64,000 nt of DNA from Candidatus Thorarchaeota archaeon (GCA_016840685.1 JAEORX010000002.1:28852-92851), one strand, 5' to 3'; positions 1,412 through 24,993 are shown, numbered from the stretch's first letter. A program made the numbers and translations. The notes: generated by a model not told the origin, from the letters alone.

Positions 1412-1592
1412 TTCAATCTGGAGTATCTAAGATAAAGCCCTTGCTCTCTGGTGGCGAGTTAGAATGATTAGTTCTGTTCTTGAATGGGCATGAAGATGTT
1501 GCCAGTGAATCTTTTAAGGAGTCATGGAAAAGTCGTGATAAATTCTGGCAAAAAAAGACCTTCAAGTCTTCAGTATTGGATGGGAACTTCAA

Positions 1593-4559: not shown

Positions 4560-4574
4560 GTCATGACGACCTCA

Positions 4575-7606: not shown

Positions 7607-9270
7607 AGATGATTGTTCGACACCGTGTCACTTGCTGTTATCACGATGGTGATGTTTGTACGCATCCAGACTCTTAGTGGGAGTGAGTTATTAGAAAGAT
7701 GGAAGTAATGACTTCTGACTACGAAGGTGATGTTATGCATTCCTGGGACAATCCACATTGGAAGAGAAACAATGTGGCTGATACTTGAATTGACGAATCC
7801 AGTTATCGCAAGAGGGGATAGAGCATTGTCACAGAAAATAGATACGTTGACCAAATGAACAGGTTGATTGTTGTCATCTAAAACATTCAGATTGAATTCT
7901 AAAAATTCTCCATAATATGTGATTCCAGCTGATACATTGATCTCGATGATTCCAAAGATAATGAGGTTGAATTGCGGAGGTGTAATGAATTGATAATATC
8001 CACTTATCGGATATACATTGACTGAGTGTTGTCCTACAGAGAGGTTATGCCAAATTGGTATATTTACCAAACAGGATTGATTTGGTAGAACATCAGCTAT
8101 TATTGAAAACTGCATATGTTCATCTGTTAGCTGAAGTTGTATTGACTGATTCCAATCAGGAGTTGATTCAATGAAAAACTCTATAGTCGCAGTTTCTCCT
8201 CTTGTTACATTCCAGTAATAGTGGTCTATTGAGAATAATAAGGAGTTTGCTAAGACATTCACATCGGCTGCTGTTTGGGCTGTTTGATATTGAGGATTGG
8301 TTGCAGTGATGTTGATGTGATAAAGTCCTGGACTTGTATTGAAAGGGATCATTGTTGAATACTTCCCGTTCCCAAGGCTCGACAAGATGCCAGAGCCAAA
8401 ACCTGTGGTCCATAGAACCATACTATCTTCTATTGGACACGATTCCAAATCTGAGTGTTCTATAACTAGCTCAGCCTGATTAATATGGGTCCCATCAGGT
8501 GACTGGCAAAAGACTGCTTCTGGTGATGATACTATAGTTAGATTTGAGGCGGCAGGAAGCACTGTGACTTCGAATGAGTCAGTAAACGGGAGAAAGTCCT
8601 CGTTCCCATCACTTGAAATCGTCAGATTGTAAAAACCCGGTGGACCTAATAACTTAGTCCAGTTCAGATATATCATTCCTTCAGAGCTTGTAGTTGTATT
8701 CAGGTCCAACACATTCTGTGAACTCATATCTTCTACATGCAATCTAACTGATTCGCCTGAAAAAACAACATTCTCATTATGTACACTTGCAATCATAATT
8801 GGGAGAGATGCGTTCAGGCCATATTGAATGGAGAGGGTAGTCAAAGGGACTGCGGCGAGATGTCCTCTGTTGATTGTTATTTCGATATTATCTCCTGCAC
8901 TTTGATACACTGTATCGAAAATTTCTACAGTAAAAAGTGCAAAGGCTTGCACACCTGTTTCGGTCGGATTCGTATGTGCTGGTAAGATTGTATATGATGA
9001 ATTTAGATAACGAACTGTAGGAGAGGGTGGAATGAAATATTCATCTGCAAAAAACGGTCCTAAATCAGTTACTACAGCGAATGAAACATAACACCATCCT
9101 TCGTCGCTGAAATCTGCAACAAGTTTTGCAACCATGTTAATTGTTTCTCCAACCTCGTATACGAATTTGTCTGTTTCAAAATACTGAAAGTCAAAATAGA
9201 ATGCTGAAACTGGAATAGTGAGATATGCAATAATAAGGACAAAGATGAGCATGGTTGCTTTCTTTTTCAA
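7483..9270 (-). CDS. Secreted, sequon-rich Ig-like repeat surface protein (adhesin or S-layer-like)
   Basis: N-terminal signal peptide MKKKATMLIFVLIIAYLTIPVSA. About 18 N-x-S/T sequons. Repeated beta-rich modules carry the G-x-(Y/H)-x-I-x-I pattern (PGFYNLTISS, PGLYHINITA, PGMHNITFVV). Confidence 0.7.
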   Translation of the reverse strand: MKKKATMLIFVLIIAYLTIPVSAFYFDFQYFETDKFVYEVGETINMVAKLVADFSDEGWCYVSFAVVTDLGPFFADEYFIPPSPTVRYLNSSYTILPAHTNPTETGVQAFALFTVEIFDTVYQSAGDNIEITINRGHLAAVPLTTLSIQYGLNASLPIMIASVHNENVVFSGESVRLHVEDMSSQNVLDLNTTTSSEGMIYLNWTKLLGPPGFYNLTISSDGNEDFLPFTDSFEVTVLPAASNLTIVSSPEAVFCQSPDGTHINQAELVIEHSDLESCPIEDSMVLWTTGFGSGILSSLGNGKYSTMIPFNTSPGLYHINITATNPQYQTAQTAADVNVLANSLLFSIDHYYWNVTRGETATIEFFIESTPDWNQSIQLQLTDEHMQFSIIADVLPNQSCLVNIPIWHNLSVGQHSVNVYPISGYYQFITPPQFNLIIFGIIEINVSAGITYYGEFLEFNLNVLDDNNQPVHLVNVSIFCDNALSPLAITGFVNSSISHIVSLPMWIVPGMHNITFVVRSHYFHLSNNSLPLRVWMRTNITIVITASDTVSNNHLQDLSITRIISCGSIMTPPPILFTGITSADPFTARLTSLES

Positions 9271-9389
9271 CTACTACACCAGAAAACTGTCTTTGTTTCT
9301 CCTAAAAAACTGCACACGGATTCAACGGTAGGTTTAATTCGCATGATATTTCGTCAACTATAGACTCTAACGAGAAGAGGTATAGCATC

Positions 9390-9755
9390 ATGGTGATTCA
9401 GCTCAAGAGTGCTGTTATTGACTCTATTGATGAAACTGAAACGAGAAGACTGAAGCTATTAAAAGTGTCATCGAAAAGTGATGGTGCTACACTTACCTTG
9501 GAGCTTCCTGATGCTTTGTGTGATGCATTGAAAGCCAATGATTCGATAACAGTTGTTATTGATTCCAAACCAATTACAAAAGGGGAAAAAGCAAAGCTGT
9601 ATGTAGAGAGCAGTGTCTTTAAGAAACAAGAGAAAAACGGTCTTGAGGTTATTGGATCTGTAGGTGGGCTTCGACTAGTCTTTACTCTTGGTAAAGCCAC
9701 TCCAAGCCAAAGCAATGTCTTCAGTTCTAAGAAGTTCTTTCTAGCAATTATGTAA
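9390..9755 (+). CDS. Possible RNA polymerase subunit Rpo8 (RpoG/Rpb8-like), tentative
   Basis: 121 aa. ITVVIDSKP..EKAKLYV and EVIGSVGGLRLVF resemble the Rpb8 SFGGLLM segment. It lies just upstream of tfb. From memory only. Confidence 0.4.
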   Translation: MVIQLKSAVIDSIDETETRRLKLLKVSSKSDGATLTLELPDALCDALKANDSITVVIDSKPITKGEKAKLYVESSVFKKQEKNGLEVIGSVGGLRLVFTLGKATPSQSNVFSSKKFFLAIM

Positions 9756-9928
9756 AATCTTGACAATCAGGTGCAAATCTGATTACTTTCGGTCATCTCT
9801 CTTTCTGACCAGACCGTTAAAGACCGCTCACTGCGGGCTGGAGTTCACTTGGACAGACTGTTCCTCTCCGTGAGTGTATATTTGATATCTGAAACTTAGT
9901 TAGGATTGATTGTACACACTCATAATGG

Positions 9929-10969
9929 GTGTGGTTATTGACTGATGGAATATGTGAATCTCGTTTAACGAATTCAAAATCCTGTCCTGACTGTGGTGGC
10001 TTTCTGGTCACTAGTCATGGACATATAGTGTGTGCTGAGTGCGGTTTGGTACTCTCAAGAGAGTATGTTTTGCCCACATACCAAATGGGAGAACGACCTG
10101 GCGATGATTCCCCAGACGCGAGTATGTATGTGTCTCTGGGAAATCGGATGCACATTGTAGATGGTCTTGGTAGTTACATAGGCTTTCATAAAGACAGGTA
10201 CTTTCAGGATGCCCAAGGACAAGCACTTTCTGGAAGAATGCAGAAAAAGTTCAAACGTCTAAAAACAATTTATAGCACTAGAATCAGAATTGGAAAGAAT
10301 GAGGCAAAATATAGGGCTCTGCGAACGCTTAATCATGTATCAAAACTGCTTATGATAAACGAACAAGTTCGTGATCGAACTGCATATTTGTATAAGAAGG
10401 TAGTAAATGAAACAGTAGGAGGGATTAGCAACAACATTCTGTTGATCGCTGTTTGTCTTCTGATGGCTGTAAGGGAATTCAAAGAGGAAGCCCCAATTAC
10501 TCTTGATGAAATAGCTGATGTATTTGAAAAGTGTGGCCATCGTGTTAATGTAAGAGCGATTGTACGCGAAGCACTCAGACTCAAATCTCTTACAGGGCAT
10601 TCTCCCGAGATAAGAAAACCAGAAGACTATGTCCCAAGAGTTCTTTCTATGCTGATGAATAGTCCGAGGGTGGTCAGCAAGGTTCAATCACGAGGCTGGA
10701 AGATAAAAGACTATGAGAATGCACTTAGAAACAAAATCCTAGAAGTTCTCCAAACGATACCAGCTTCAAAACGAGGAGGACGAAATCCTTTCATATTCAC
10801 CGTATCAGCAGCTTATGCTAGTGACCGACTAATAGCTATGCAGTATGGAAAAAGGGCGGTAATGACCCAGAAGCTTGCGTCGACTGCCACAAAGGTGGCT
10901 GAGTACAGTATTAGAGATCATTTCGGGATGATGAAGAAAATCATCGAGGTTTCTCATGCGAGTATATAG
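9929..10969 (+). CDS. tfb: Transcription initiation factor IIB (TFB), divergent paralog
   Basis: N-terminal zinc ribbon CPDCGG..CAECG followed by two cyclin-like repeats. GTG/TTG start. Confidence 0.8.
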   Translation: MWLLTDGICESRLTNSKSCPDCGGFLVTSHGHIVCAECGLVLSREYVLPTYQMGERPGDDSPDASMYVSLGNRMHIVDGLGSYIGFHKDRYFQDAQGQALSGRMQKKFKRLKTIYSTRIRIGKNEAKYRALRTLNHVSKLLMINEQVRDRTAYLYKKVVNETVGGISNNILLIAVCLLMAVREFKEEAPITLDEIADVFEKCGHRVNVRAIVREALRLKSLTGHSPEIRKPEDYVPRVLSMLMNSPRVVSKVQSRGWKIKDYENALRNKILEVLQTIPASKRGGRNPFIFTVSAAYASDRLIAMQYGKRAVMTQKLASTATKVAEYSIRDHFGMMKKIIEVSHASI

Positions 10970-11044: not shown

Positions 11045-12739
11045 ATGGGCTCAGAATGTTATATAATCCGTTGTTCAGTTGGACGTTGTGAAAAATGCTC
11101 TCATGATAGTAATCAAGGCTGCATGAAACTTGGTGATATCAGAGAATCTGGAGATAACAAATCACAGATAATACTAGTTGAGTCTGAGAAAGGGTTGTTT
11201 CACTATTGTCAGTCATGCAGTTTGAAACAAAATGAACCTCCATGGAGAACTGATGGGTGGGAAACCGTCTTTGTTGGTATAAATAACAGTCTTTTCGATA
11301 ATATGGAATATACTTTTGGGGTATACAAAGTTGGGACATATCTTTCAATTTTCAAACTTGGAGAACACAATCATTCTAAACATATTGTTGTTCCACTTGT
11401 TAGAACTGAATTAGAATCCTCTCTTATTGAAGAACTGAGCCATAGTAAAGTGCAGTTTGAGAGTAGACGATATTCTTTGAAGGAAAACATATCTCAAAGG
11501 CTGAACCAATCGAGAAACGATATTTCGATGCATATAATGAAGCTGATACCTGAGATTAATGAAACTACTAGGATTAGACTCTCTGAAATTATATCTCATC
11601 GTCGAAATGTTCTCGGGTCGCTGATGCCAATCATTCTTGATGATTTGGTGGAAGAGATATATCTTGACCACCCAGGAGCCCTGGTATATTTTGATCATCA
11701 GAATTATGGAAGGTGTGTTACCAATATTACTTTCGAAGAAAATGAAGTACCAAGAATTGTGACTTTAATTCGATCTGAGAGTAATCTTCACTTAGACAGA
11801 AGTAATCCTTCTCTTAAAATGGATTTACAGATTCAGGGTGCTTCTTTACGGTTCTCTGCCAGCATGCCGCCACTTAGTCCGGATGGGTTACACCTTGAAA
11901 TTCGTCGAGCTAGAAACAATCCATTCTCAGTTAGTGATTTGATTGAAAATTTTACAATGACCCCAGAAGTGGCGGCTGTCTTGCTTTTTGCGATTACTTG
12001 TCGTTTCAATATCACAATAACAGGAGGCCCTGGAACAGGGAAGACAACTTTACTGAATGCTTTGGATATGGCAACCCCAAAATGGTGGAGAAAAATCTAC
12101 ATCGAGGACGCTATTGAGAGTAGAACACAAAGAGATCATCATCAGGTTCGGTTCAGGGTGAATCCGGTAGACGAACAGATATCAAAATTCAATAAGAGTG
12201 ATGAGATAATCAAATGCCTTCATAGATCACCAGATTATCTTATTCTTGGAGAAATACAAACAGCAGAACATAGTAAGGCATTGTTTCAAGCTGTTTCAGC
12301 AGGTCTTCGCACAATTCAAACATGTCATAGTGAGTCAGCTGCAAGTCTAATTTCTAGATGGAAATTGGGGCATGGGATTAACAATGATAGTCTTGCCCTC
12401 ATGGATGTTGTTGTAACACTTGAAAAACCTAGACCAGGAGAGTCAGAACGTAGAGTTAGTGAGATTTCAGAGATAAGGAGAGAAATGGTAAATGGTATCT
12501 TGGAATTCTGTGGTCTGAATACAGTGTATGACAACGCTATAGGAGTAATAGGTAATTGGAAAAAAGACGGTGCTTTTATGACTCGTGCGAGAGAGTCTGG
12601 AGTTGAGAGCCATATTCCTGCTCTGAAAAATCTGATAGATGTTGTTCACAATAATATGTGCAACCTTGATTTTGAAATGCTTGGTGAGAGAATGTGGTTT
12701 CACGGAAATCCTATGGCGTTTAATGAACACAGATTATAG
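11045..12739 (+). CDS. Type II/IV secretion-family ATPase (FlaI/TadA/VirB11-like) with a Cys-rich N-terminal domain
   Basis: Walker A ITGGPGTGKTTLLNAL, Asp box IYIEDAIE, Walker B DYLILGEIQ, His box TCHS. The first 60 residues contain 7 Cys. Confidence 0.85.
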   Translation: MGSECYIIRCSVGRCEKCSHDSNQGCMKLGDIRESGDNKSQIILVESEKGLFHYCQSCSLKQNEPPWRTDGWETVFVGINNSLFDNMEYTFGVYKVGTYLSIFKLGEHNHSKHIVVPLVRTELESSLIEELSHSKVQFESRRYSLKENISQRLNQSRNDISMHIMKLIPEINETTRIRLSEIISHRRNVLGSLMPIILDDLVEEIYLDHPGALVYFDHQNYGRCVTNITFEENEVPRIVTLIRSESNLHLDRSNPSLKMDLQIQGASLRFSASMPPLSPDGLHLEIRRARNNPFSVSDLIENFTMTPEVAAVLLFAITCRFNITITGGPGTGKTTLLNALDMATPKWWRKIYIEDAIESRTQRDHHQVRFRVNPVDEQISKFNKSDEIIKCLHRSPDYLILGEIQTAEHSKALFQAVSAGLRTIQTCHSESAASLISRWKLGHGINNDSLALMDVVVTLEKPRPGESERRVSEISEIRREMVNGILEFCGLNTVYDNAIGVIGNWKKDGAFMTRARESGVESHIPALKNLIDVVHNNMCNLDFEMLGERMWFHGNPMAFNEHRL

Positions 12740-12808: not shown

Positions 12809-13018
12809 TTGACAAAGGATGATAGTCTGATTCGTAATGAACAGGGAGGCCCACTTGTTGAGGAGAGTCTACTCCTGGGCCTTGCGGTTGTTACGGTTTC
12901 TATTGTAATTGCTGTTATCCTTCAGGCTACGGGATGGGCACAAGATGTTGTAGAGGGATTATTGCAGCTTTTGCAGGACAGTTGGAGTAGTCTAACTCAG
13001 TTATTCGGTACACCATAA
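12809..13018 (+). CDS. Flp/Epd-like type IV pilin precursor (class III signal peptide)
   Basis: 69 aa. NEQGG|PLVEESLLLGLAVVTVSIVIAVIL has Gly at the cleavage site, Glu at +5 and a hydrophobic helix. GAGGT lies 8 nt upstream of the TTG start. Directly downstream of the ATPase. Confidence 0.5.
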   Translation: MTKDDSLIRNEQGGPLVEESLLLGLAVVTVSIVIAVILQATGWAQDVVEGLLQLLQDSWSSLTQLFGTP

Positions 13019-13215: not shown

Positions 13216-15087
13216 TTATGAATCTATGAGGTATTTTCGTCGGATTATTGGAATAGCCGTAATACAAACTGATGCAATCAAAGCAATCGCTATACCACTG
13301 ATTCCAACTCCTTGGAGTGACATCACATCGGATGTTGTTATTTCAATTAGAAATGAACCACTGGATGAAACAATTGAGTTTGATGATTCTGATTCATAAT
13401 ATAGAATATAGGTACCAATTGTAGCGGGAACTGGAAGATGAAGCGTGATAACGCCTTCATCGGTGGTTTGAGTGGTCATACTTATTTGCAACCAGTTGAA
13501 ATTTACCAATACTCCTTTCGGTGTGGATCCATTAAGACACCTCAGTGTCAGATGCACATATAGCTCATGAAGAGGTGCATTGACTTCATAGAAATCAAGT
13601 CCAAGTCTTATAGGCATCAGTTTAGTGACTTGAAGAATGTATTCAAATGAGGCTATTGATTCGAATAGTGTTTCATTTCCAATATAATGGATGGAGATAT
13701 TGTACTGAAACTCAATTTGAGGAACAGCAAAGGAGAAAGTTAGTTGGCCAGTTGTATTGGTGACTGCTGTTGACTGGAGTACATTGTTTATCATGAATTG
13801 AAGTGGTCTGAGAGAACAATTGCCAGCCCAGTTAGTCATCAGAAGTTCAAAGAAGACCATTTGACCGGGTGAAGCGTAATGATCTACATTACAGTGTATT
13901 AGTGATATCTCTGGTACGGACCAGACTGAGAAAGTACTACTAACACTTGTGTTCATTAGGAATGGGTTTTCTGTCAGTTCAATGTGGAGAACATGAATAC
14001 CTGGAGGTCCTAGAAGGTCCCATCGAAGATTGAGAGTAGTTGTGGATGAACTTGATGGCGTTGTGAAGCTCTGGTTAGAGATGGAGTCTGTTATTGATAT
14101 TATGGAATTAGGGATTGGACGACCTAGTGAGTCAGAAACAGTGATTTCAATTTCAATAATAGAACCAATTGTGCATAACTCAGGAACTCTAGTAATAATC
14201 TGAACAGGACTCGAAACTGAAAAAAAGAAATCGGTATAGGATTCGGAGTATCGTTCGGTTCCATTATACTGGATTCTCAATGTATGAATGCCAAGTGTGA
14301 ATCTTTCATCAACCTCTAAATGAAGATGAGCTACTCCTGAGCTATTAGAAGTAATAGGAAATAGAAGAGAACCATCCAAGAACACTTGAAGTGGTTCGTT
14401 TTGGAGTGTGTGGTTCGTTTCGGAGAGTTTGACATAAATATCTACAGATTCATCGAGTACTACATCACTTGAAGGTAAGTTCAGAATGACAACAGAGGTG
14501 GGAATTTGTACAATCTCTATTGTGAATATGAATTCAGATGCGTCGAGATAGTTTGTCAAATCCTGTTTGAAAACAACACGGATATCATTGTATCCTAGTG
14601 TACTCCAAGAACTGTTACACTCGATTTTGAAATCGATATCTCCTGAGGAATTGGTTATACTCACACCAAGTGGAGTATCATCTTTGAGAACCGTTATCAT
14701 CGCATCTGATACTGGATTATTCGAGTCATCAGATAGATGAACCGAGAAAGACAGTAAGTCTCCTGAGGATAGTAAATATGATACCGGATTGATCTCAATG
14801 TTTGTAGATGATAGTATTGTCAGTACAATCTGTTGATACGTCGGTGACAACGAAAGAGACTCATTACCATAGAATGTCACATTGAGAGTTGTTGGACCAA
14901 GCGCGTGGATTAAAGGGATGTCCCAGACTATTGATGCAATGCCATTGGCATCCGTTTTTCTGGAACCAATGAAAGTATCAAAAGTCTGGTCAAAGAAAGA
15001 TATCCACTGATTTGGTACAGGGTTTCCATAGCTGCCATTCTGAAGAAGTGTGGCTGTGATTGTAATTGCGTTTCCTCGAGTCACCAC
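13216..15087 (-). CDS. Membrane-anchored Ig-like repeat surface protein, paralog of 7483..9270; the true N-terminus probably extends to ~15183-15189
   Basis: Repeated G-x-(H/Y)-x-L-x-I modules (LGIHTLRIQY, PGIHVLHIEL, IGTYILYYES), many sequons and a C-terminal TM anchor GISGIAIALIASVCITAIPIIRRKY. An in-frame signal peptide lies upstream of the first canonical start. Confidence 0.75.
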   Translation of the reverse strand: MVTRGNAITITATLLQNGSYGNPVPNQWISFFDQTFDTFIGSRKTDANGIASIVWDIPLIHALGPTTLNVTFYGNESLSLSPTYQQIVLTILSSTNIEINPVSYLLSSGDLLSFSVHLSDDSNNPVSDAMITVLKDDTPLGVSITNSSGDIDFKIECNSSWSTLGYNDIRVVFKQDLTNYLDASEFIFTIEIVQIPTSVVILNLPSSDVVLDESVDIYVKLSETNHTLQNEPLQVFLDGSLLFPITSNSSGVAHLHLEVDERFTLGIHTLRIQYNGTERYSESYTDFFFSVSSPVQIITRVPELCTIGSIIEIEITVSDSLGRPIPNSIISITDSISNQSFTTPSSSSTTTLNLRWDLLGPPGIHVLHIELTENPFLMNTSVSSTFSVWSVPEISLIHCNVDHYASPGQMVFFELLMTNWAGNCSLRPLQFMINNVLQSTAVTNTTGQLTFSFAVPQIEFQYNISIHYIGNETLFESIASFEYILQVTKLMPIRLGLDFYEVNAPLHELYVHLTLRCLNGSTPKGVLVNFNWLQISMTTQTTDEGVITLHLPVPATIGTYILYYESESSNSIVSSSGSFLIEITTSDVMSLQGVGISGIAIALIASVCITAIPIIRRKYLIDS

Positions 15088-15458
15088 TGTTTCACCCTCA
15101 GCTACAACTTGTTCAGTAGCGAATATGGATAACGTGAATAGGAGGAAAAGGAGGATTATTGAGAACCAGTATGATTTTCTAATGATTATGACCTCCTTGG
15201 AATATGTTAGTGATTCGACGTTGAATACAAGTTGAGATTCTGAAAATCAGTACATTTGTACTGACTTCGTGTATGAGATTCGTTCTTCAGTAGTTTCGTC
15301 ACCAGTTCATCATTCGGCTTTGGGGTTTTTATTCTCCTATAGATTATGTATTGTTTTGCAATCTGTTTGGGGGTGTTCATATGCTAAACAACAGTACGAT
15401 GGTTCGGTTCTGTAAACAACCGTTCTTGGATAAAATGAACGTGATGAGGAATTATTAG

Positions 15459-18400
15459 ATGCCATTTTACTTATCCCGACGTGAAGGCACAGGTTTCATT
15501 TCTCATGATGTGTACAGAGGACCAAAATCACGAGTAAGTTTGATTTGGGCAATTGAAATCATCCTTGTTGGGCTGTATCTTTTAGTAGTGTATCTATTAC
15601 CATTGACAGGACTATCTGACCAACCAGTGGTACCTCTAAAGACACTTGTTGAATTAGTACTCTGTTTTGTGCCCATTATTACAGGCTTATTATTGACTAT
15701 AAACCAAATTCGTTTCCAAAGCTTGGTATCTTCTATTGAGGGGAGTACATTATTTGTTCAGCTTGATGACTATATTGTCGGTACATGTTGTCTTGATATT
15801 GTATCAGTATCCGGATCGGTGTATCTAGATGAGAATGGAAAACCTAGGTATAACGAGAGTATGTTGTTAGCCATGCGTGCAGGAATGCACAAATCCGCAA
15901 CCATGGCATTTGAAGCAGGTGTGACAGATGGAGAACCATTTCTACGTATTTTCATTACTGCAGTTGGGCATGATTCAGAACTTATTAAAGAGATTCTGAG
16001 GAGGGAAGCTACAAGGACCGAGGCGATTCTTTTCTCTTCCCTTAGCAATATAGAACTGAAACTTCTAGAGGATCATTTCCTAAAAAATGCCATATTGACT
16101 CATTTGGAGTGTGTTCAGATTAATACCAAAGATATAGTCATTGATGATAAGACTCAATCTGTGTGTTTGATTACCTTGCAGGGGTTGCCTCGGACTTTTC
16201 CAACCCAAGACACTTCACAGGTTGGAACCTTCATCGCTACAGCTCTTGGACAAGGATACACTACAAGCATGACATGCATTTTTTCTTCATCCAAGCCAGG
16301 CAAAGAAAAACGTACACTTGAGAATCAGTGGAAGAGTATTCAGGCAAAGGAAAAAAGGAAGGAGGAATCACTTAAAGATCATTCAGCGAAAAAAAGGCTG
16401 TTGACTCGTTATGAAGAAATCCAAGACAAAGCTAGTTGGTTTGATGTAACAGTATATTTCAAGGTGAATCTTCCAACAAACAGCAATACTAAATCTGTTT
16501 TAGATGGAGTGATTGGACTAGTTCATTCGATTTGGGGTGGTAGTGATTCAATCAAACTCAGCCATCAGAAGCTTTCGAAGCGGATAGTTTCAAGAGTACT
16601 ATCTCGCCGTCATTTGAAACGGCAGCGTGTGCATATTGCTCGGCTGTCATCCTTTGTCAACACTCCAATTCAGCAGCTTCCAATCATCGCGCCAAAACGT
16701 GTCCCAATCTTTCCTGTTCCTGCAAAAGAATTAGTAGATAATGAACTTGTTATTGGAGAAACAGTATTTGGAAACCGTCGTCTATCAAAAGTCGGATTGG
16801 AAATTGATTGGCTGAAAGAACATGTTGCTATCTTAGGAGCAACAGGAACTGGAAAAACAACTATTGTGAAACACCTTATGGCACAGCTTAGTATGAAAAC
16901 GGATGTGCCTTGGTGGATATTTGATATCAAGGGGTCGGAGTACCTTAGTTTGATTGGTAATGGTGATTCAGATATCCTTGTTTTGAAACCAGGTCTTGAT
17001 ACTTCGTTTGTAATCAATCTTATTGATTCAGAAATGGTAAATGATGATAACTATGCTCATTCTACATTTAAGATTTTGAGAGAGCTGTTGAATGAGAGGG
17101 GTGACTCTTCTGAACTCTCTCCAGCAATGGAAAGATTACTTCGTGATTCTGTAATGAGTCTGGTAGAAACAACAGATCATGATAACTCTGTTCAATCTCT
17201 AGTGAGAGCTGTTTCGATGCTAGCTAGTAATGATCGCATTGGAAATATGACTAGGGATGCATTACTCAACCGTCTTGAAGTATTGACTCGTGAGCCATTG
17301 GGCTCAATTCTTGGTGGTGGCTCTGATACGGTTCGATTTTCAGATCTATTGGATAAACGTGTCATTCTTGACCTTTCGTACGTTGCACGTATCGGAGGAA
17401 TGGATTCTGCGAGACTCCTTTACAATCTTGTCGCCAAACGTATCTTTGATAGTGCTATGAAGCGAGGAGTTTCGGAGGGGTTGCATCATGTTGTTGTATT
17501 AGAGGAGGCAAGTAATCTTGTACCTGAGAGTTATACAAGACAATCTGCGGCTGATGTTACAACTGGAGAATCTATGGTAATGCTACAGCGAGCTACAGGA
17601 CAAGGTGTCATTGTTATATCTACTAGACCTAATATTTCCTCGAACATATTAGCGAATACATCAACAAAGATAGTATTTCGGTTACCATATGACAGTCAAG
17701 TTGGTGGAAGATTTCTTTCATTAACTAGTGACCAAGAACAGTATCTCCGTACATTGAAACGTGGGAGGGCCTTGATGAGTATTCCTCACACTGAAACTTT
17801 TGAGATTGTAACACAACGATTTCCAGAAACAGCAGCTGTGATAGGTGATACTGTATCTCGTGATGTGGGTGACCCTGCTCCAACTCCCGTGAATGATTTG
17901 CTAGATAAAGATGAATTAACTAGTGATGTGGATATATCCAAGTCAGATGACGACAATGAAGCTCAAACGCTTGTCTTTAACAGACTTGATAGACTTGGGG
18001 GACATGTGGTGGCATTTCTGGCTTCAGAAGAGTGGGCTACTGAAGGAGAAATCAGAAATCTCATTGCAGTCCTAGACTCTAATGCTGTTGATGATGACAT
18101 TTCAGAAGTTATTCGTAATCTTGTTTCATTAGGTAGTGTGGAAAGGGAGTCTCTGGCACTTGTTGATGGGGGGTATTTATTCGCACTACCAGGAAAAGCA
18201 TTAGATGCAGTCAGAAGAGTGATTGTAGAGTATATTTCTGGAAGATTAGGGGTGGAGTGCAACCCGTCTGCCAATTCTAGCACTCTTGATTGGCCTGACA
18301 TTGTCCTTGAAGATAAGGCTGTAATAGTCATTCCAGAACATCTTAGAGCATCATCGATGCTAGTTGCCTTGGATAAAATTCGCAAACAAATGAATAAGCT

Positions 18401-19250
18401 TCAAAACAGTGTCAGTGAATTAATCGTTGTTGTCAGAGGAAGTGTTGCAGCTGCAAAATTAAGGGAGTTAATGGACTCGTCAGAGGAGTTCAATGATGTT
18501 AGCGTGGTATCAGCATTTCCAAGGTCTCTAGATTCTATAACTGAAGGTCTAACAAATGATTCAAATTTGTCACAAGACTCATCGATTCAAACACAATTGA
18601 ATGAGAACACTGAACCGAGTGAACAGATTGGATTAATTGGTGCAATGCATGATGTGGGATCTGCAACAAGCCGAGCTATCCAGATTCGTTTATGGTTTGG
18701 GCTAATTCAAGACTTAGTTGACATATCTAATGGTCAGGTCAAATGGGAGGAGCTCTTAGAGTTTATAGAAACCACATCTTTACAGTCATTGAAAAGGAGA
18801 TCTGCTCCTCTAAGCATAGAAGAAGGGAAACGAGCTCTAACAGAATTATTGGCTGATGAAGTTCTAATTGCGTTACGGGTCAGCGAGGATTCAAAATACT
18901 TAGATCTTTCTGAGGGGTTGTGGTTGGTAAATTCATCGGTTCTTAGGAATCTAAAAGAGAAAGCTGTAAACATTATAGAAGATGAATTGAAGAAACATCA
19001 TTCCAAAGTTTCGAAAAGTCATGGTTACTATGACCTTTGTGTTGAAGGCACCTCTTATGTCATATTTCCAAACCAACAGCAGTTGAACACACTCCTCCAT
19101 TTGCATAGTGATATAGCTTGTAGGACTTGTAAATCTACAAGGGTCGTTTGTGTTCTAACTGCATCAGAGTACCTTGAAGAGACTGAAACGACACCGATCA
19201 ATCTGATAGTTAGAACAATGGACGATAATATTTCAGCTCTGGTGACGTAG
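15459..19250 (+). CDS. Giant membrane-anchored HerA/FtsK/VirB4-superfamily ATPase with a long C-terminal extension
   Basis: 1263 aa. Two N-terminal TM helices. Walker A AILGATGTGKTT (~16836), Walker B HHVVVLEEASNL (~17485) and TRPNISSNILANTSTKIVFRL. About 450 C-terminal residues carry two winged-helix-like segments. GAGGA lies 9 nt upstream of the ATG. Confidence 0.8.
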   Translation: MPFYLSRREGTGFISHDVYRGPKSRVSLIWAIEIILVGLYLLVVYLLPLTGLSDQPVVPLKTLVELVLCFVPIITGLLLTINQIRFQSLVSSIEGSTLFVQLDDYIVGTCCLDIVSVSGSVYLDENGKPRYNESMLLAMRAGMHKSATMAFEAGVTDGEPFLRIFITAVGHDSELIKEILRREATRTEAILFSSLSNIELKLLEDHFLKNAILTHLECVQINTKDIVIDDKTQSVCLITLQGLPRTFPTQDTSQVGTFIATALGQGYTTSMTCIFSSSKPGKEKRTLENQWKSIQAKEKRKEESLKDHSAKKRLLTRYEEIQDKASWFDVTVYFKVNLPTNSNTKSVLDGVIGLVHSIWGGSDSIKLSHQKLSKRIVSRVLSRRHLKRQRVHIARLSSFVNTPIQQLPIIAPKRVPIFPVPAKELVDNELVIGETVFGNRRLSKVGLEIDWLKEHVAILGATGTGKTTIVKHLMAQLSMKTDVPWWIFDIKGSEYLSLIGNGDSDILVLKPGLDTSFVINLIDSEMVNDDNYAHSTFKILRELLNERGDSSELSPAMERLLRDSVMSLVETTDHDNSVQSLVRAVSMLASNDRIGNMTRDALLNRLEVLTREPLGSILGGGSDTVRFSDLLDKRVILDLSYVARIGGMDSARLLYNLVAKRIFDSAMKRGVSEGLHHVVVLEEASNLVPESYTRQSAADVTTGESMVMLQRATGQGVIVISTRPNISSNILANTSTKIVFRLPYDSQVGGRFLSLTSDQEQYLRTLKRGRALMSIPHTETFEIVTQRFPETAAVIGDTVSRDVGDPAPTPVNDLLDKDELTSDVDISKSDDDNEAQTLVFNRLDRLGGHVVAFLASEEWATEGEIRNLIAVLDSNAVDDDISEVIRNLVSLGSVERESLALVDGGYLFALPGKALDAVRRVIVEYISGRLGVECNPSANSSTLDWPDIVLEDKAVIVIPEHLRASSMLVALDKIRKQMNKLQNSVSELIVVVRGSVAAAKLRELMDSSEEFNDVSVVSAFPRSLDSITEGLTNDSNLSQDSSIQTQLNENTEPSEQIGLIGAMHDVGSATSRAIQIRLWFGLIQDLVDISNGQVKWEELLEFIETTSLQSLKRRSAPLSIEEGKRALTELLADEVLIALRVSEDSKYLDLSEGLWLVNSSVLRNLKEKAVNIIEDELKKHHSKVSKSHGYYDLCVEGTSYVIFPNQQQLNTLLHLHSDIACRTCKSTRVVCVLTASEYLEETETTPINLIVRTMDDNISALVT

Positions 19251-19251
19251 A

Positions 19252-20046
19252 CTAAGGTTGGATTCTTGTGCAGATGGTTGGTTCGTTTCGTAGTAAAGAT
19301 TTGAGACGAGCAGGAACTGTGAGATTGAAAATAGCTATGATTCTGTTTTTTCTAGCAATATCCAGGAGCTCACTAACTTTTTTGGCCATTCCGCCTGTAA
19401 CATCGGTGTTTGCCGAAGGTCCTGTTTTTGACAGAATCATTTCTTTGTTTTTCTGATTTATCAAAGGGATGTGTTTTGCTGATGGGTTTAATCTTGGGTT
19501 GTCGTCTAAAACTCCATCAACATCAGTTCCAATAAGTATGGTTTTCGCATTCATTTTTTCTGTAAGATACACTGCGATTGTGTCTCCGCTAAGAATAGCA
19601 GCTGTTTTTTCTTCGTCGAAGCAAACATCTCCATGAGTCACTACAACAAGTCCATTATCTAATGACTTTCTAATAATGTGAATTGGAAAGTTATGAATCA
19701 CACCCTTTTTCAATGTCACAGAACAAAAGGGAGGGATAGTTACTGTGAGAATACCTTCTTTATTCAAACTGGTTTCTACAGATAATGCTAACTCAGACAT
19801 ATTATGACGAATTGGTGGAATACCCTTCAAGAGTATGTCTTTGGGACTTTCAGGATTTGCATATCCATGTGAGTGAGCCGCTTGATGACCATGAGCGCCT
19901 CCGCCAAGTACGATGATTAGATCACCTTTATACTCCTTTAGCTCCTTGGCAATTCGGGTCAAGTTTTTGAAATTGATTCTTGGAGGGGAAGAGTCCTTGT
20001 AAGTTATTACAGACCCGCCCAATTTGACAATTGTAAGGGGTTTCAA
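19252..20046 (-). CDS. ipk: Isopentenyl phosphate kinase (amino-acid kinase fold)
   Basis: IVKLGGSVITYKD, LGGGAHGHQAAH, VTHGDV. 264 aa. Confidence 0.8.
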   Translation of the reverse strand: MKPLTIVKLGGSVITYKDSSPPRINFKNLTRIAKELKEYKGDLIIVLGGGAHGHQAAHSHGYANPESPKDILLKGIPPIRHNMSELALSVETSLNKEGILTVTIPPFCSVTLKKGVIHNFPIHIIRKSLDNGLVVVTHGDVCFDEEKTAAILSGDTIAVYLTEKMNAKTILIGTDVDGVLDDNPRLNPSAKHIPLINQKNKEMILSKTGPSANTDVTGGMAKKVSELLDIARKNRIIAIFNLTVPARLKSLLRNEPTICTRIQP

Positions 20047-20611: not shown

Positions 20612-22435
20612 ATGTGTGGAATAATTGCTGTAGTTCAAGAACGCGGTGATGTCGCACCTTTCCTACACCAAGCGTTGAAACGTCTTGAATATCGTGGTTA
20701 TGATTCGGTAGGAGTAACTACTATTGCGAATAATAAGATGTATACCAAGAAGGATAAGGGAAAGATAGAGGAAGTTCACAGACGTCTAAATCTTGATGAG
20801 ATGCCAGGACTGATAGGAATCGGTCACACTAGATGGGCAACTCATGGTGCACCATCTATGTCAAATGCACACCCTCACTTTGATTGTGAAAATAAGATTG
20901 CTGTTGTACACAATGGGGTAATTGATAATTTTATGGAACTCAGAAAAAATCTTTCCGAGAAAGGACATAAGTTCAATTCAGAAACAGATACTGAAGTCAT
21001 TCCACATATGATTGAAGACTTGATGAAAGAGGGATTAAATCTAGTAGAATCTATCAAGGAAGTTACAAAGAGAATCGAAGGTACATATGCTATTGTAGCT
21101 ATGTCGACTAAAGAAAATGACAAGATTGTTTGCACGCGTGATGGAAACCCTCTTGTTATTGGTACAAAGTCTGGGGCTTCATACGTGTCTTCTGATATTC
21201 CTGCATTTCTACCGATCACTAATGATATGATTCTCTTACTTGATGGAGAGATAGCAAGTCTAACGAACCAGGGTATCCATATTGAGAGATTGTCTGATGG
21301 AGAAATAGTTAGCAGAGATTCCATAAAGATAAGCTGGACTGCAGACCAAGCACAGAAAAGCGGATATCCCCATTTCATGTTGAAAGAGATACATGAACAG
21401 CCTGATGCTATTAGAAAAACACTCAGACTTCGGTCAGAAACTATTGAAACCGCGGCTCGACTGATAAGGGAAGCCGAGAATGTCTATATTTTAGCAATGG
21501 GCACATCTGGACATGCTGCAAAAGCTGGAAGACATATGTTTGCGTCTCTTTCAGGTATTCTTCCATCCTTCGAACTAGCGAGTGATTTTCAAGATACGGT
21601 TTATGGATCGTTGTCAGAACGAGATTGTATTATTGCTATTACACAATCAGGTGAAACTACAGACACTATCACTGCCGTCAAATATGCAAAGCATTATGGT
21701 GCAAAGATAATAGCGATTACGAATGTTGTTGGGAGCTCGATAACACGTCTTGCAGATCACACAGTTTTAACTCAAGCCGGACCAGAGATAGGTGTTGCTG
21801 CGACTAAGACCTTCATGGTTCAACTAACTTCTCTGGCTTTGATTGCCTTGGCATTGGGAGAAATGACGGGATTCAAAGAAAGCGAAGAAATTGTAAAGAA
21901 ACGTAGCTCCTTGGAGAAATTACCTGAACTCGTATCTGAGGTGATTTCAAGAAATGAAGAACGGGCAAGGAAACTCGCCTCAATTCTTTATGAGAAGCCA
22001 AGTCTCCTTTTTTTGGGGCGAGGTGTTTCTATGGCTACCGCTGAAGAAGGTGCATTAAAACTCAAAGAGATTGCATACAATCATGCAGAAGCATATTCGG
22101 CTGGTGAGTCAAAACATGGACCTATAGCACTTGTCCAAGATGGTTATCCGGTTATCTTTGTTGTTCCCTCAGATGAAACAAGAAATCGTATTATTGGTAA
22201 TATAATGGAGATGAAGGCTAGGGGTGCTACTATTATTTCTGTGACTCAAAAAGAAGATGTTGAGATAACGGAACTGTCGGACTATGTGTTTACAGTTCCA
22301 GAGATAACAGAAGCAGAGTTCTCGGTAATGCCCTACGTTGTTCCACTACAGCTATTTAGTTACTATATGGCTCTGAGAAATGGATACGACCCTGACAAGC
22401 CGAGAAATCTTGCAAAATCAGTCACGGTTCTTTAG
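20612..22435 (+). CDS. glmS: Glutamine--fructose-6-phosphate aminotransferase
   Basis: N-terminal MCGI nucleophile, two SIS domains and C-terminal KSVTV. 607 aa. Confidence 0.95.
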   Translation: MCGIIAVVQERGDVAPFLHQALKRLEYRGYDSVGVTTIANNKMYTKKDKGKIEEVHRRLNLDEMPGLIGIGHTRWATHGAPSMSNAHPHFDCENKIAVVHNGVIDNFMELRKNLSEKGHKFNSETDTEVIPHMIEDLMKEGLNLVESIKEVTKRIEGTYAIVAMSTKENDKIVCTRDGNPLVIGTKSGASYVSSDIPAFLPITNDMILLLDGEIASLTNQGIHIERLSDGEIVSRDSIKISWTADQAQKSGYPHFMLKEIHEQPDAIRKTLRLRSETIETAARLIREAENVYILAMGTSGHAAKAGRHMFASLSGILPSFELASDFQDTVYGSLSERDCIIAITQSGETTDTITAVKYAKHYGAKIIAITNVVGSSITRLADHTVLTQAGPEIGVAATKTFMVQLTSLALIALALGEMTGFKESEEIVKKRSSLEKLPELVSEVISRNEERARKLASILYEKPSLLFLGRGVSMATAEEGALKLKEIAYNHAEAYSAGESKHGPIALVQDGYPVIFVVPSDETRNRIIGNIMEMKARGATIISVTQKEDVEITELSDYVFTVPEITEAEFSVMPYVVPLQLFSYYMALRNGYDPDKPRNLAKSVTVL

Positions 22436-22468
22436 GTCTTTAAATCGGACTGAGCATTAGAGAATTAT

Positions 22469-22723
22469 GTGAGATCAATGGGATTATCAATTCTTAGTCC
22501 ACTGAATGATTTTGCAAACCTGATAGCAGGGTATTTTATGGAAATCTGGGATTTCCTGATTTTTATAGGCAATATTTCAGCATTCGTAGTTGTACTAGTG
22601 GGGGCAATTTTGTGGTTTACAGGTGTTAATGACAAGAAAGGTAAGGGGTTGGTTCTGAGTGGGATTCTTCTAGCAATTATTATCCAGTATTTTGTCTTCT
22701 ATCCTCCCTCATTTACACTATAG
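22469..22723 (+). CDS. Small membrane protein, 2 TM helices
   Basis: 84 aa with two clear hydrophobic helices. No family recognised. Confidence 0.4.
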   Translation: MRSMGLSILSPLNDFANLIAGYFMEIWDFLIFIGNISAFVVVLVGAILWFTGVNDKKGKGLVLSGILLAIIIQYFVFYPPSFTL

Positions 22724-23932
22724 AAAATCCTTCGTTATGACTTGAAGTGTATCTGCAAGTCGATCTATGTCTTCTAGTGTGTTGTAAGCATGAATCGAGG
22801 CTTGGATTATTCCATCGTCTGATAGTGATTGAACAAGAGTGTGTGCACAGAGAACTCCACTTCTAACAGCTATGTTTGATTCGTCAAGAAATAGAGACAC
22901 GTCGTGGCAGTTGATTCCGCTTTCCGGATTAAGATTAAAGCCAAAAATAGTGTTTTTGTCATCTGGTTCACCATAGAGTAAGATAGTATCTATCTCTGAT
23001 AGTTTCTGAACTAAGTATTTTGAGAGAGTTTTGATGTGCTTGAAAAGTCCTTGAGCGTATAATTCTGTTAGATACTTAAGAGATGTGTCTAGGCCAGCAA
23101 TTGCTGGAATATTCAGGTAGCCTGATTCAAACTTATCCGGCTGTAGTGCAATCTCGAAGTGATTATTCTCGATGTTGGTGACTGAGGACCCTCCTAGAAT
23201 TCCAGGTTTATGGATTTCACCAACTGATTTATCAATCCATTGGATAGCCAGCCCTGGGGGGCCCATCAAGCCTATGTTGGCTGACAGAATCAATAAATCA
23301 GACCCAAGTGATGTCAATGGTTCATCAGTAAGTCCTGCCGAACGGGTTGCATCAGTCAAAAGAAGTGAATTATATTGATGTGCGATTTCAGAAATAGTAT
23401 GTATGGGATTATGTGTTCCAAGTCCTGGTGACACATGACTGATCGCTACTAAGCCTGTATTATCGTCCATTCTTTTTTCTAGTTCGTCAATTATCAGGTT
23501 TCCTTTGTTATCAATTGGAGAAATCTCTACATCTAGTCCCAATACATTTGCTGCTCGGAGTATTGAAACGAGAATCGAGTTTTCTTCTCCCTGTCCAACC
23601 ACGATCTTGCTCTTCCTATTGGCTTTCCAGTCGAATCCATACACGAAAGATGCAACTGCAGTAGGAATCGACTTTTGGAAGGATATCTGAGATTTTTCGG
23701 TTTGGAGAAATGTGGCCAGAGACTTTCTGGTGTCTTCAACAATTATACCACCTTTCACAGCAAGACTATGAGCTCCACGACGTGTTGAAACCACAACAGA
23801 ATTGAGAAAATGTGTTATTGTATCTATAGCTGGACGTGGGACTAGTGTGGTACTTGCAGAATCGAAATACGCTAAGTCAGGGATGTTATCATATACACCA
23901 AAGTTGTGTTTTATATCAAGTTCAGTGGGCAT
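22718..23932 (-). CDS. Class V aminotransferase / cysteine desulfurase-like protein lacking the PLP-binding lysine
   Basis: YFDSASTTLVP, AISHVSPGLGT, LLTDATRSAG and RSGVLCAH match the SufS/CsdA layout. The S-G-H-K segment reads LSANIGLMGPPG. Confidence 0.85.
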   Translation of the reverse strand: MPTELDIKHNFGVYDNIPDLAYFDSASTTLVPRPAIDTITHFLNSVVVSTRRGAHSLAVKGGIIVEDTRKSLATFLQTEKSQISFQKSIPTAVASFVYGFDWKANRKSKIVVGQGEENSILVSILRAANVLGLDVEISPIDNKGNLIIDELEKRMDDNTGLVAISHVSPGLGTHNPIHTISEIAHQYNSLLLTDATRSAGLTDEPLTSLGSDLLILSANIGLMGPPGLAIQWIDKSVGEIHKPGILGGSSVTNIENNHFEIALQPDKFESGYLNIPAIAGLDTSLKYLTELYAQGLFKHIKTLSKYLVQKLSEIDTILLYGEPDDKNTIFGFNLNPESGINCHDVSLFLDESNIAVRSGVLCAHTLVQSLSDDGIIQASIHAYNTLEDIDRLADTLQVITKDFL

Positions 23933-23952
23933 GGATAGTATTCATGAGATAA

Positions 23953-24993
23953 GTGACTTTAATACCATGTCATACACTAGGGGCAATGATTTTGGTGACC
24001 AAGAAGCTTGTAGAGGGTTATTTTGTTATTACTACAGATGAACTCATCTTTGAAGTTAAGGGTATAATTCATCCAAGAAATCGAATAATTGCTTACCTTC
24101 GATATGCACCAGCTACAAATGAAAGACATCATTCAAATATTGATTACAGAAAAATCTATGCGCTGGATGAAAGAGAAGATTTTCTACGGAATAGATATCC
24201 ATCGTATCTCTGGTTCAGTGAAACTCACGGTAGAATTATGCAATCAGTTCCCAAAGACAAAATTAAATCGGTATATAATCCAGTGGAATATCTAGCTAGC
24301 CTTCGGACACAGACTGAAACAGCTACCAAGCTGGGGCGTGCATCAGTGAAACTATCTGAAAAACTGGTGGAAGTGACTGATATTGACTGGTCGGATATTG
24401 GTATTACAGGGTCTCAGCTTGTAGGAACTGAAAGGGAAGACTCAGACATAGACTTGGTAGTTTACGGATTTGAAGCCTGTAGACGATTTTATTCAGAATT
24501 AGCAAAGAATATAAAATCTATCAAAGGAGTAGAACGTTATTCCGGGTTTCTGTTGGATGAGCATGTAAACTTCAGATGGGGTAAACATAATGATTTGAGG
24601 AATACTCTCAAAGAGATTGAGAGAAAGAAGGTGTTACAGGGTTTGTTTGAGGGCTATCACTTCTTTGTGAGATTGGTCCGGAATCCAAATGATCTTGATT
24701 TTGCCTATGGTGATGTTTCATTTCAAGAAAAAGGACAAAGATTAGTGTCAGGCAAGATTGTTAATGATAGTGAGTCTATATTCACACCTTGTGAATATGT
24801 GGTAGAGTGTGTTAATCCAATCAATCTTAGAAAGCTTGTCAGTTATCGAGGACGATTCACAGAACAGGTTTCAAATGGTATGGATTTCGAGGCAAAAGGA
24901 AGGCTTGAAACGGTTATAGATCATAAAAAGAATCTGCAGTATTTCCAATTGGTTTTGGGAGAAAGTCCTACTGATTATCTGATTCCAAAGTAG
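23953..24993 (+). CDS. Predicted nucleotidyltransferase (Pol-beta superfamily)
   Basis: GITGSQLVGTEREDSDIDLVVYG is the NTase G-S..D-x-D motif. 346 aa. Divergent from the desulfurase-like gene. Confidence 0.55.
   Translation: MTLIPCHTLGAMILVTKKLVEGYFVITTDELIFEVKGIIHPRNRIIAYLRYAPATNERHHSNIDYRKIYALDEREDFLRNRYPSYLWFSETHGRIMQSVPKDKIKSVYNPVEYLASLRTQTETATKLGRASVKLSEKLVEVTDIDWSDIGITGSQLVGTEREDSDIDLVVYGFEACRRFYSELAKNIKSIKGVERYSGFLLDEHVNFRWGKHNDLRNTLKEIERKKVLQGLFEGYHFFVRLVRNPNDLDFAYGDVSFQEKGQRLVSGKIVNDSESIFTPCEYVVECVNPINLRKLVSYRGRFTEQVSNGMDFEAKGRLETVIDHKKNLQYFQLVLGESPTDYLIPK

Follow-up and report, generated by a model that had tools for sequence, protein, structure and literature searches.

A membrane-tethered HerA-clade ATPase with a VirB4-like body and a four-domain tail in Candidatus Thorarchaeota, a candidate motor of a Ced-like envelope machine

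To which family of translocases does a 1263-residue, membrane-anchored ATPase of an Asgard archaeon belong, and what would it move? The question is raised by a complete open reading frame (ORF) at positions 15459–19250 (+ strand) of a 64,000-nt stretch of Candidatus Thorarchaeota archaeon (GCA_016840685.1 JAEORX010000002.1:28852-92851), called here the window, whose coordinates are used throughout unless another locus is named. The ORF starts with ATG, and the sequence GAGG lies about 10 nt 5′ of the start. An initial annotation had described the product as a candidate novel translocase with two N-terminal transmembrane (TM) helices, a domain of unknown fold, a HerA/FtsK-type P-loop core and two winged-helix-like modules, and all the peptide strings that it quoted are found in the translation. 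Our answer is that the gene encodes a membrane-tethered HerA-clade ATPase with intact catalytic motifs, a VirB4-like two-domain body and a family-specific four-domain tail. With a confidence a little above even, we take it to be the motor ATPase of a chromosomal, type IV secretion-derived, Ced-like envelope machine.

The protein begins with a TM hairpin resembling a VirB3 unit fused to VirB4 (15534–15704, +; TM1 at residues 26–48, a 14-residue loop, TM2 at residues 63–82). A Kyte–Doolittle scan found exactly two TM-grade segments, with peaks of 2.56 and 2.49, and none elsewhere in the protein; the AlphaFold2 model has helices at residues 25–50 and 61–85, and the orthologues P0122–P0128 likewise show two TM peaks. 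Hydropathy and model thus agree with the two helices initially proposed. The N-terminal tail is basic (net charge +3), and an N-in/C-in hairpin is therefore the simplest arrangement, which would leave the remaining ~1180 residues in the cytoplasm. In VirB3–VirB4 fusions, a TM hairpin precedes VirB4.

The P-loop core occupies residues 429–788 (16743–17822, +) and matches Pfam DUF87, the HerA central domain, with 50.2 bits against a cut-off of 23.2, which places it in the FtsK–HerA superfamily. Walker A (GATGTGKTT, 16836–16862, +, residues 460–468), Walker B (VVVLEE, 17487–17516, +, residues 679–683) and the STRPN sensor/arginine strand (17619–17633, +, residues 721–725) are invariant in 48 orthologues and line up with the matching motifs of Sulfolobus HerA (PDB 4d2i), so that the HerA/FtsK-type core of the initial annotation stands. 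Between hairpin and core lie a mixed beta/alpha N-domain of ~315 residues (15714–16658, +, residues 86–400; model predicted local distance difference test score, pLDDT, ~80–90), which has no Pfam match, and a proline-rich connector (NTP..LP..P.F.VP, 16659–16742, +, residues 401–428). In a 29-sequence alignment of labelled Asgard relatives, 19–59% identical to the query, E152 and Q254 of the N-domain are nearly invariant, P403, F418 and P421 of the connector are invariant, and P408 is at least 90% conserved. Among the 48 orthologues, invariant residues are also numerous through the N-domain and the tail; only the acidic linkers at residues 789–832 and 1033–1058 vary freely.

The N-domain had been put at ~330 residues and described as being of unknown fold, a description that the structural comparison does not uphold. 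When residues 1–800 (AlphaFold2 model, mean pLDDT 74, with parts of the ATPase core below 50) were compared with the PDB by Foldseek, the eleven best matches were all full-length TrwK/VirB4 chains from the R388 type IV secretion system, headed by 8rtd_O (E = 2.9e-18, ~816 columns). Weaker matches followed to HerA (3e-10), DndH-C (5e-9), the 457-aa TrwK chain 8rtd_h (7e-9), the VirB4 C-terminal domain 4ag6 (7e-8) and TrwB/VirD4 (2e-7). The ATPase-only VirB4 chains are thus 10–11 orders of magnitude worse than the full-length ones, in a comparison whose TM-score is 0.31 and whose model has a pLDDT of 74; the TM-score is low because the domain orientations differ. Since the E-value is better by at least 10 orders when the VirB4 N-terminal domain is present, we provisionally call residues 86–400 VirB4-N-domain-like. 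As modelled, residues 1–800 are a VirB3–VirB4-fusion-like or CedB/CedD-like unit and probably not a VirD4- or FtsK-like one. The topology likened at first to VirD4 and FtsK therefore survives in its ingredients, a TM pair, an ATPase and two winged helices, while the N-terminal 800 residues are of the VirB4/CedD kind instead.

Behind the core, an acidic linker (17823–17954, +, residues 789–832; net charge −10, 10% identity to orthologues, pLDDT < 50) leads into a tail of ~430 residues. The tail model (residues 826–1263, mean pLDDT 70) consists of four units, a winged helix plus a small alpha/beta domain, twice; the two winged-helix-like stretches noticed initially both fall inside modelled units, and the tail has four domains rather than two. 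Both winged helices are modelled as helix–strand–helix–helix–strand–strand. The first (17955–18248, +, residues 833–930) has a pLDDT of 78–89 and a net charge of −7, and the second (18633–18929, +, residues 1059–1157), with a net charge of −6 and a mean identity of 79%, is the best conserved part of the tail. Alpha/beta domain 1 (18294–18554, +, residues 946–1032) carries the invariant motif VVVRGSVAAAKLRE...SAFP. Alpha/beta domain 2 (18933–19247, +, residues 1159–1263, of which 1159–1238 form the modelled unit) reaches a pLDDT of only 65–83, and the last 28 residues stay below 50. It contains a cluster of H1188, C1194, C1221, C1224 and C1231, invariant in the 48 orthologues and at least 90% conserved in a set of 28–81% identity, which suggests a putative structural metal site.

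Foldseek gave no global match for the tail model. The local matches of single winged helices were to cullin WHB (TM-score 0.74), then MukE, MarR and RTP, so that protein-binding winged helices (cullin WHB, MukE) are as prominent among the best fold matches as DNA-binding ones. In every one of the 48 orthologues the two winged helices are acidic (net charge −3 to −10, isoelectric point ~4.6), and the tail has neither an Ftsk_gamma family match nor a sequence match to DNA-binding regulators; the analogy drawn at first with the DNA-reading FtsK gamma domain is not supported. A tail profile retrieved nothing from the PDB sequences and only fragments of the same family from a collection of 5.8 billion proteins, and by these searches the tail has no detectable relatives outside its family. 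An internal duplication of the winged helix–alpha/beta pair was considered and not accepted: an hhalign comparison of the two halves was not significant (E = 0.12, 27 columns), the 27-column overlap falls in equivalent positions, and duplication stays a suggestion drawn from the modelled secondary-structure pattern alone. A nuclease or other catalytic function was likewise rejected, as no triad of conserved acidic or lysine residues was seen; what is invariant in the tail is R-G-S-x-A-A...R together with the His/Cys cluster. Because the tail is acidic and free of a catalytic signature, and protein-binding winged helices are among its best matches, it is probably an adaptor or regulatory arm for partner proteins or a nucleoprotein substrate, not a sequence-reading DNA clamp.

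How widespread is the gene? The 5.8-billion-protein collection holds an identical protein and 241 relatives, and the best 120 of the 241 are nearly all 1250–1265 residues long, with 54–76% identity across the full length. A scan of species-representative genomes gave 99 relatives, of which the best 80 are full length and 40–76% identical and come from metagenome-assembled genomes (MAGs) labelled Thorarchaeota, with a few labelled Promethearchaeota or Hermodarchaeota; taxon names follow the labels of the MAG depositors. About 75 Thorarchaeota genomes hold the uninterrupted full-length ORF (~1260 residues, 40–76% identity), and the related-locus scan, for which a narrower alignment served as query, returned only Thorarchaeota. 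In five cases a MAG has a second copy, always on a short contig, and three of these contigs also repeat the upstream neighbour, as a partial Big-type surface-protein gene; such second copies therefore look like mixed populations and not paralogues. The ATPase is a core gene of Thorarchaeota rather than a rarity. Public entries carry names such as 'ATP-binding protein' and 'DUF87 domain-containing protein', and no description of the family or of its architecture was found in the literature searched, in line with the initial impression that the full-length architecture is unlike any described archaeal system.

Outside this group, an exhaustive HMMER search of 1.84 billion cluster representatives found about ten full-length clusters (42–59% identity) and then a long series of proteins 22–36% identical. 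The distant relatives share the N-domain and the ATPase (query residues ~130–790), have two to six N-terminal TM helices and carry C-terminal extensions of their own; the four-domain tail was found only in the Thorarchaeota-type family. Their sources are labelled Helarchaeota, Lokiarchaeota, Odinarchaeota, Njordarchaeota and Ranarchaeia, so that the phyletic survey proposed at the outset yields a Thorarchaeota core gene with distant relatives under five other labels, and the family occurs in at least six labelled Asgard lineages. The neighbourhoods of the distant relatives contain genes for ribosomal proteins (S10, L2/L23, S25), EF-2, EF-1alpha, RFC and Orc1/Cdc6, and this housekeeping context of replication and ribosomal genes suggests an old, vertically inherited Asgard gene and not one belonging to a mobile element.

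An origin from a mobile element or conjugative plasmid was rejected on three grounds: the guanine-plus-cytosine content is flat at ~0.40, the neighbours are housekeeping genes, and the same synteny is kept in ~75 genomes. Among mobile-element genes, nothing but a TnpB/IS605 insertion was seen, in some of the orthologous Thorarchaeota loci. In L001 and L002 this inserted IS605 OrfB/TnpB gene (Cas12f-like; 8536–9808, −) separates the surface-protein gene from the VirB4-like gene.

The favoured Ced-like motor would work as follows. The N-in/C-in hairpin, standing at the place of a fused VirB3, would tether the cytoplasmic unit to the membrane. Judged from its family, the ATPase would assemble into a hexameric ring on the cytoplasmic side of the membrane and use ATP to move a polymer there, most probably DNA and otherwise pilin subunits. 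DNA is favoured because CedB and CedD, the only functionally tested archaeal proteins of the same architecture, act in DNA import; VirB4-like handling of pilins would be the main alternative within the same framework.

What could such a motor work with? Five genes precede that of the ATPase, encoding a 595-aa secreted sequon-rich protein, a TFB paralogue, a TadA/FlaI/VirB11-class ATPase, a Flp-like pilin and an Ig-like surface protein. The divergent TFB/TFIIB paralogue (9929–10969, +), a possible regulator, matches Pfam TFIIB and Zn_Ribbon_TF and reaches 65 bits with the NCBIfam TFIIB model, whose cut-off is 384. The secretion ATPase (11045–12739, +), a possible partner with a Cys-rich N-terminus, matches Pfam T2SSE (1e-21) and an NCBIfam TadA-family model (104 bits). 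The 69-aa Flp-like pilin (12809–13018, +), in which GG is followed directly by PLVEESLLLGLAVV, is another possible partner, and its Pfam Flp1_like match is weak (E = 0.047). The Ig-like (Big) surface glycoprotein (13216–15087, −) has a C-terminal TM anchor and is transcribed divergently from the ATPase gene, a pairing kept in rearranged Thorarchaeota genomes. Neither a TadB/C or FlaJ platform gene nor a recognisable prepilin peptidase gene stands beside the T2SSE ATPase/pilin pair.

This gene set recurs within 12 kb of homologues only 20–28% identical in two distinct Helarchaeota lineages (loci L006 and L090). In L006, a 41%-identical orthologue of the TFB paralogue lies directly upstream of the distant homologue (8901–9926, +), and an orthologous T2SSE ATPase (41% identity, E = 7e-72; 22250–24181, +) lies 8 kb from it. 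In L090, a T2SSE/UCP018868 ATPase begins at 21116, 9.4 kb downstream of the homologue. Flp-like pilins of 62 residues (L006, 16498–16686, −) and 68 residues (L090, 13600–13806, +, 1.9 kb downstream) are also encoded there, and the Thorarchaeota and Helarchaeota pilins share the pattern G-x-P-[VLI]-[VT]-EE-x-LL-[IL]-G. In the rearranged Thorarchaeota loci L040, L071, L074 and L076, the TFB-like and T2SSE genes have stayed within ~10 kb of the ATPase gene, in L071 immediately downstream of the ATPase gene, and all but L074 keep the pilin. Surface proteins follow a similar pattern: L009 has one divergently upstream of the homologue, 24% identical to that of the window, sequon-rich surface proteins adjoin the homologues of L090 (C-terminal anchor) and Odinarchaeota L089 (signal peptide only), L006 also encodes an anchored glycoprotein, and in L090 the anchored glycoprotein stands upstream, as does a 3-TM protein. 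In most such Thorarchaeota and Helarchaeota loci, the TFB paralogue and glycosylated surface proteins stand near the ATPase gene.

A further candidate emerged from an all-against-all comparison of ten loci. It is an 84-aa protein with two TM helices and a KKGK loop (22469–22723, +), whose family is present in at least 60 Thorarchaeota loci at 54–94% identity. One member immediately precedes the ATPase gene in Ranarchaeia (L007, 8058–8297), another adjoins it in the divergent Thorarchaeota locus L074, and a third occurs near the homologue in Odinarchaeota (L089, 16893–17225). The Odinarchaeota member, one of 24, matches Pfam TrbC/VirB2 below the threshold (E = 0.0024); a profile search of the family against the PDB was negative, and the 120 listed of its 561 homologues carry no Pfam annotation. 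The shape is that of VirB2/CedA1-type pilins, which makes the protein a weak candidate for a VirB2-like partner, a lead and not a finding.

In Thorarchaeota and Helarchaeota, the motor probably works, on weaker support, together with the nearby TadA/VirB11-like ATPase, the Flp-like pilin and the surface glycoproteins. In Sulfolobales, the TFB paralogue TFB3 switches on Ups, an adhesive type IV pilus, along with the Ced importer. The TFB paralogue at 9929–10969 recalls TFB3, and this dedicated paralogue perhaps controls motor and pilus genes in a parallel to the pairing of Ups and Ced under TFB3. The parallel is suggestive and comes from gene neighbourhood in two Asgard classes only. Carried one step further, it would give Asgard archaea a vertically inherited chromosomal DNA-exchange apparatus derived from type IV secretion, the counterpart of Ups plus Ced, a proposal that we put forward tentatively and think rather doubtful. 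Its parts would be the VirB4-like motor, the 84-aa two-TM VirB2-like pilin, the TadA/VirB11-like ATPase with the Flp-like pilin, and the TFB paralogue as regulator; glycosylated adhesins would provide cell contact, and the acidic double winged-helix tail would be a new module recruiting substrates or partners.

Several observations weigh against the Ced-like motor. The sequence models of VirB4, CedB and CedD are matched far below their cut-offs and over the ATPase core only, the TM-scores to VirB4 are low, and model confidence is moderate, with a pLDDT of 74 for residues 1–800 and 70 for the tail. The whole region is syntenic within Thorarchaeota, housekeeping genes included, and linkage there is therefore weak evidence alone, while the rearranged Thorarchaeota genomes and the Helarchaeota loci carry more weight; the Lokiarchaeota, Odinarchaeota and Ranarchaeia loci have no T2SSE/pilin linkage within 10 kb. 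No VirB6/CedA-like channel protein was seen in the loci examined, and the sole VirB2-like pilin candidate is the weakly supported one described above. No RNA run holds the sequence of the ATPase gene. Finally, a housekeeping function on the chromosome would suit the context of RFC, Orc1/Cdc6 and ribosomal protein genes just as well.

This last point leads to the chief rival, an FtsK/SpoIIIE-like housekeeping DNA pump, in which a membrane-anchored hexamer would clear or segregate the chromosome at division and the winged helices of the tail would guide it on DNA or on a DNA-bound partner. The gene is apparently single-copy and vertically inherited, and in several lineages its relatives have replication and translation genes as neighbours. 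The window itself has a cluster of genes for GINS (Sld5-like), the small and large RFC subunits and Orc1/Cdc6 at 842–6077, 9–14 kb upstream, and within 10 kb of the homologues there are Cdc6 in Ranarchaeia, Cdc6-like and RFC genes in Lokiarchaeota and RFC in Odinarchaeota. A TM anchor, a disordered acidic linker and winged helices at the end also recall the layout of FtsK. Against this, a gene order conserved near an origin may simply be ancestral, with no functional link behind it, the ATPase is of the HerA clade and follows a VirB4-like N-domain that FtsK lacks, and the Pfam FtsK_SpoIIIE model gives 17.9 bits against a cut-off of 24, over just 28 P-loop residues. The missing Ftsk_gamma match and the acidity of both winged helices in all orthologues point the same way, and we regard such a pump as unlikely.

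A slightly less probable explanation stays closer to the Ced-like motor and removes DNA from it. The protein would be an assembly ATPase of a pilus or secretion system, extracting or inserting small pilin subunits, either the Flp-like 69-aa protein or the 84-aa two-TM protein, or else exporting proteins, with the tail docking assembly factors. VirB4 powers pilus assembly in the type IV secretion systems of bacteria. Small hydrophobic proteins are encoded directly upstream in Ranarchaeia (79 residues, 2 TM) and in Helarchaeota L090 (120 residues, 3 TM), the Odinarchaeota member of the 84-aa family has its sub-threshold TrbC/VirB2 match, and surface glycoproteins adjoin the gene in Thorarchaeota, Helarchaeota, Odinarchaeota and L009. 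However, the VirB2-like match is confined to that single member of the 24, Flp-type pilins are normally assembled by ATPases of the TadA type and not of the VirB4 type, and the closest archaeal relatives of tested function, CedB and CedD, serve DNA import.

Far less likely is a HerA-type component of anti-virus defence, comparable to MADS Mad8, Sir2-HerA, DUF4297-HerA or DndH. In PADLOC the top match is mad8 (57 bits over almost the whole profile), with further matches to several defence HerA models, and Foldseek adds DndH-C and defence HerA structures, but all of these matches are limited to the shared ATPase core. No effector, methylase or other defence partner is adjacent, and the context is one of housekeeping genes and not a defence island; the gene is strongly conserved and apparently vertical across Asgard lineages. 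The sole neighbour with PADLOC matches is a class-V aminotransferase 3.5 kb downstream (SspA/DndA, cysteine-desulfurase models), with no other Dnd/Ssp component. Core-only matches in a housekeeping context led us to reject a defence system as the principal explanation.

That the ORF joins separate genes through an assembly or gene-calling error can be set aside as practically negligible. No sign of it was found; a false join would have room only in the two low-complexity acidic linkers, and conservation in the 48 orthologues continues over every domain junction. Two independent sequencing runs from different studies each cover 15000–19600 with a single contig, 17.2 kb long in one and 12.4 kb in the other, that shows neither differences nor gaps, and a near-identical strain has one contig over 16131–18934 that crosses the ATPase, linker and tail junctions with substitutions only. 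From the spanning contigs and the full-length orthologues in ~75 Thorarchaeota genomes, the fusion artefact that the initial annotation had named as its own possible undoing is therefore excluded.

Further observations concern genes around the VirB4-like gene. A set of a Roadblock/LC7 protein (~320 residues), an unassigned ~300-aa protein and an Arf/Ras-like small GTPase was found within 10 kb of it in Helarchaeota (L006, 17565–20083), a divergent Thorarchaeota genome (L074, 18167–20693) and Odinarchaeota (L089, 1–1854), and was not found in the window. The Arf/Ras-like GTPase alone is near the gene in five lineages, also in L009 (18262–18750) and L088 (15697–16590). Homologous proteins of ~210 residues with an N-terminal CxxCxxCC are encoded beside it in Lokiarchaeota (L088, 8706–9347, +) and Helarchaeota (L090, 13825–14445, −). 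Just upstream of the TFB paralogue, the window encodes a 121-aa protein (9390–9755, +) conserved in Thorarchaeota at 40–88% identity; its assignment as an Rpo8-like RNA polymerase subunit, suggested by a C-terminal motif, was dropped, as it had no support from Pfam, NCBIfam or the PDB. In the Ranarchaeia locus L007 (19123–21561, −), the gene for a part of the RNA polymerase large subunit (Rpb1 domain 5) is interrupted by an intein (Pfam Intein_splicing).

What follows if the Ced-like motor is correct? To our knowledge, no chromosomal conjugation-like DNA-exchange systems other than Ced and Ted have been described in archaea, and neither is known outside Thermoproteota. A motor of this class, found in at least six labelled Asgard lineages and linked to pilus and TFB genes in two of them, is a testable candidate for DNA exchange or surface filaments in Asgard archaea and bears on gene flow and cell–cell contact in the lineage closest to eukaryotes. 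Were the full DNA-exchange apparatus real, regulated chromosomal DNA would pass between cells of that lineage; were the protein a segregation pump of the FtsK kind instead, a gap in Asgard cell-division biology would be filled. The 430-residue tail is a clean target for structure determination.

It remains to place the protein among the known systems. FtsK/SpoIIIE shares with it the membrane anchor, the linker, a pumping ATPase of the same superfamily and a terminal winged helix. It differs in belonging to another ATPase clade and in having no VirB4-like N-domain; the tail described here has four domains, and its acidic winged helices are unrelated by sequence to the gamma domain that reads KOPS (FtsK orienting polar sequences). 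VirD4/TrwB is matched by Foldseek (2e-7) much more weakly than VirB4 or HerA; the Pfam TrwB_AAD_bind model does reach 25.3 bits (cut-off 20.5), but only over profile positions 4–91 of 387, the P-loop region.

By sequence, the closest solved relative is HerA of Sulfolobus solfataricus (PDB 4d2i, E = 0.0017), with which the protein has in common the motif FD-x-[KH]-G-x-EY, Walker B and the [QR]-P-x sensor motif. HerA, in contrast, is soluble, has a HAS-barrel N-domain and is encoded in one operon with its partner nuclease NurA, none of which applies here: the protein is membrane-anchored, the HerA model NF040937 gives 28.9 bits against a cut-off of 800, and there is no NurA, Mre11 or Rad50 gene near that of the ATPase.

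TrwK/VirB4 of R388 (PDB 8rtd, 7o41-7o43) is the best structural match over N-domain and ATPase, and the N-terminal TM hairpin sits where the fused VirB3 of a VirB3–VirB4 fusion would be. The differences lie in the extra 430-residue tail, in a sequence that belongs to the HerA clade and in the lack of any further visible type IV secretion gene set. The VirB4 model TIGR00929 gives 33 bits (cut-off 643.1) over residues 453–613 only, and the protein has no Pfam CagE_TrbE_VirB or AAA_10 match.

The nearest counterparts in archaea are CedB and CedD, ATPases that serve DNA import in Sulfolobales. CedD has been described as a TM segment, a VirB4-N-domain-like domain and a HerA/VirB4-like ATPase, required for DNA import (PMC11868833), and hydropathy, model and Foldseek give the same order of parts here, in a gene that, like those of CedB and CedD, is chromosomal and not plasmid-borne. 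CedD is also the best NCBIfam match (NF053655; residues 426–780 against profile positions 195–519 of 527; 54.3 bits, cut-off 600), followed by VirB4_CagE, HerA models and CedB (NF041017, 25.2 bits, cut-off 700). CedB and CedD differ in their length of ~530–590 residues, in having no C-terminal tail and in belonging to Thermoproteota rather than Asgard archaea, and no CedA, CedA1 or CedA2 homologues were seen near the ATPase gene. The contrast in size drawn by the initial annotation is confirmed, as the HerA, CedB and CedD profiles span 487–590 positions and include no such tail, and the characterised family to which it allowed that the protein might be assigned did not appear among those compared. 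Taken together, the protein falls below the sequence-model cut-offs of VirB4, CedB, CedD, HerA and FtsK, and in architecture and fold it is of the VirB4/CedB/CedD kind.

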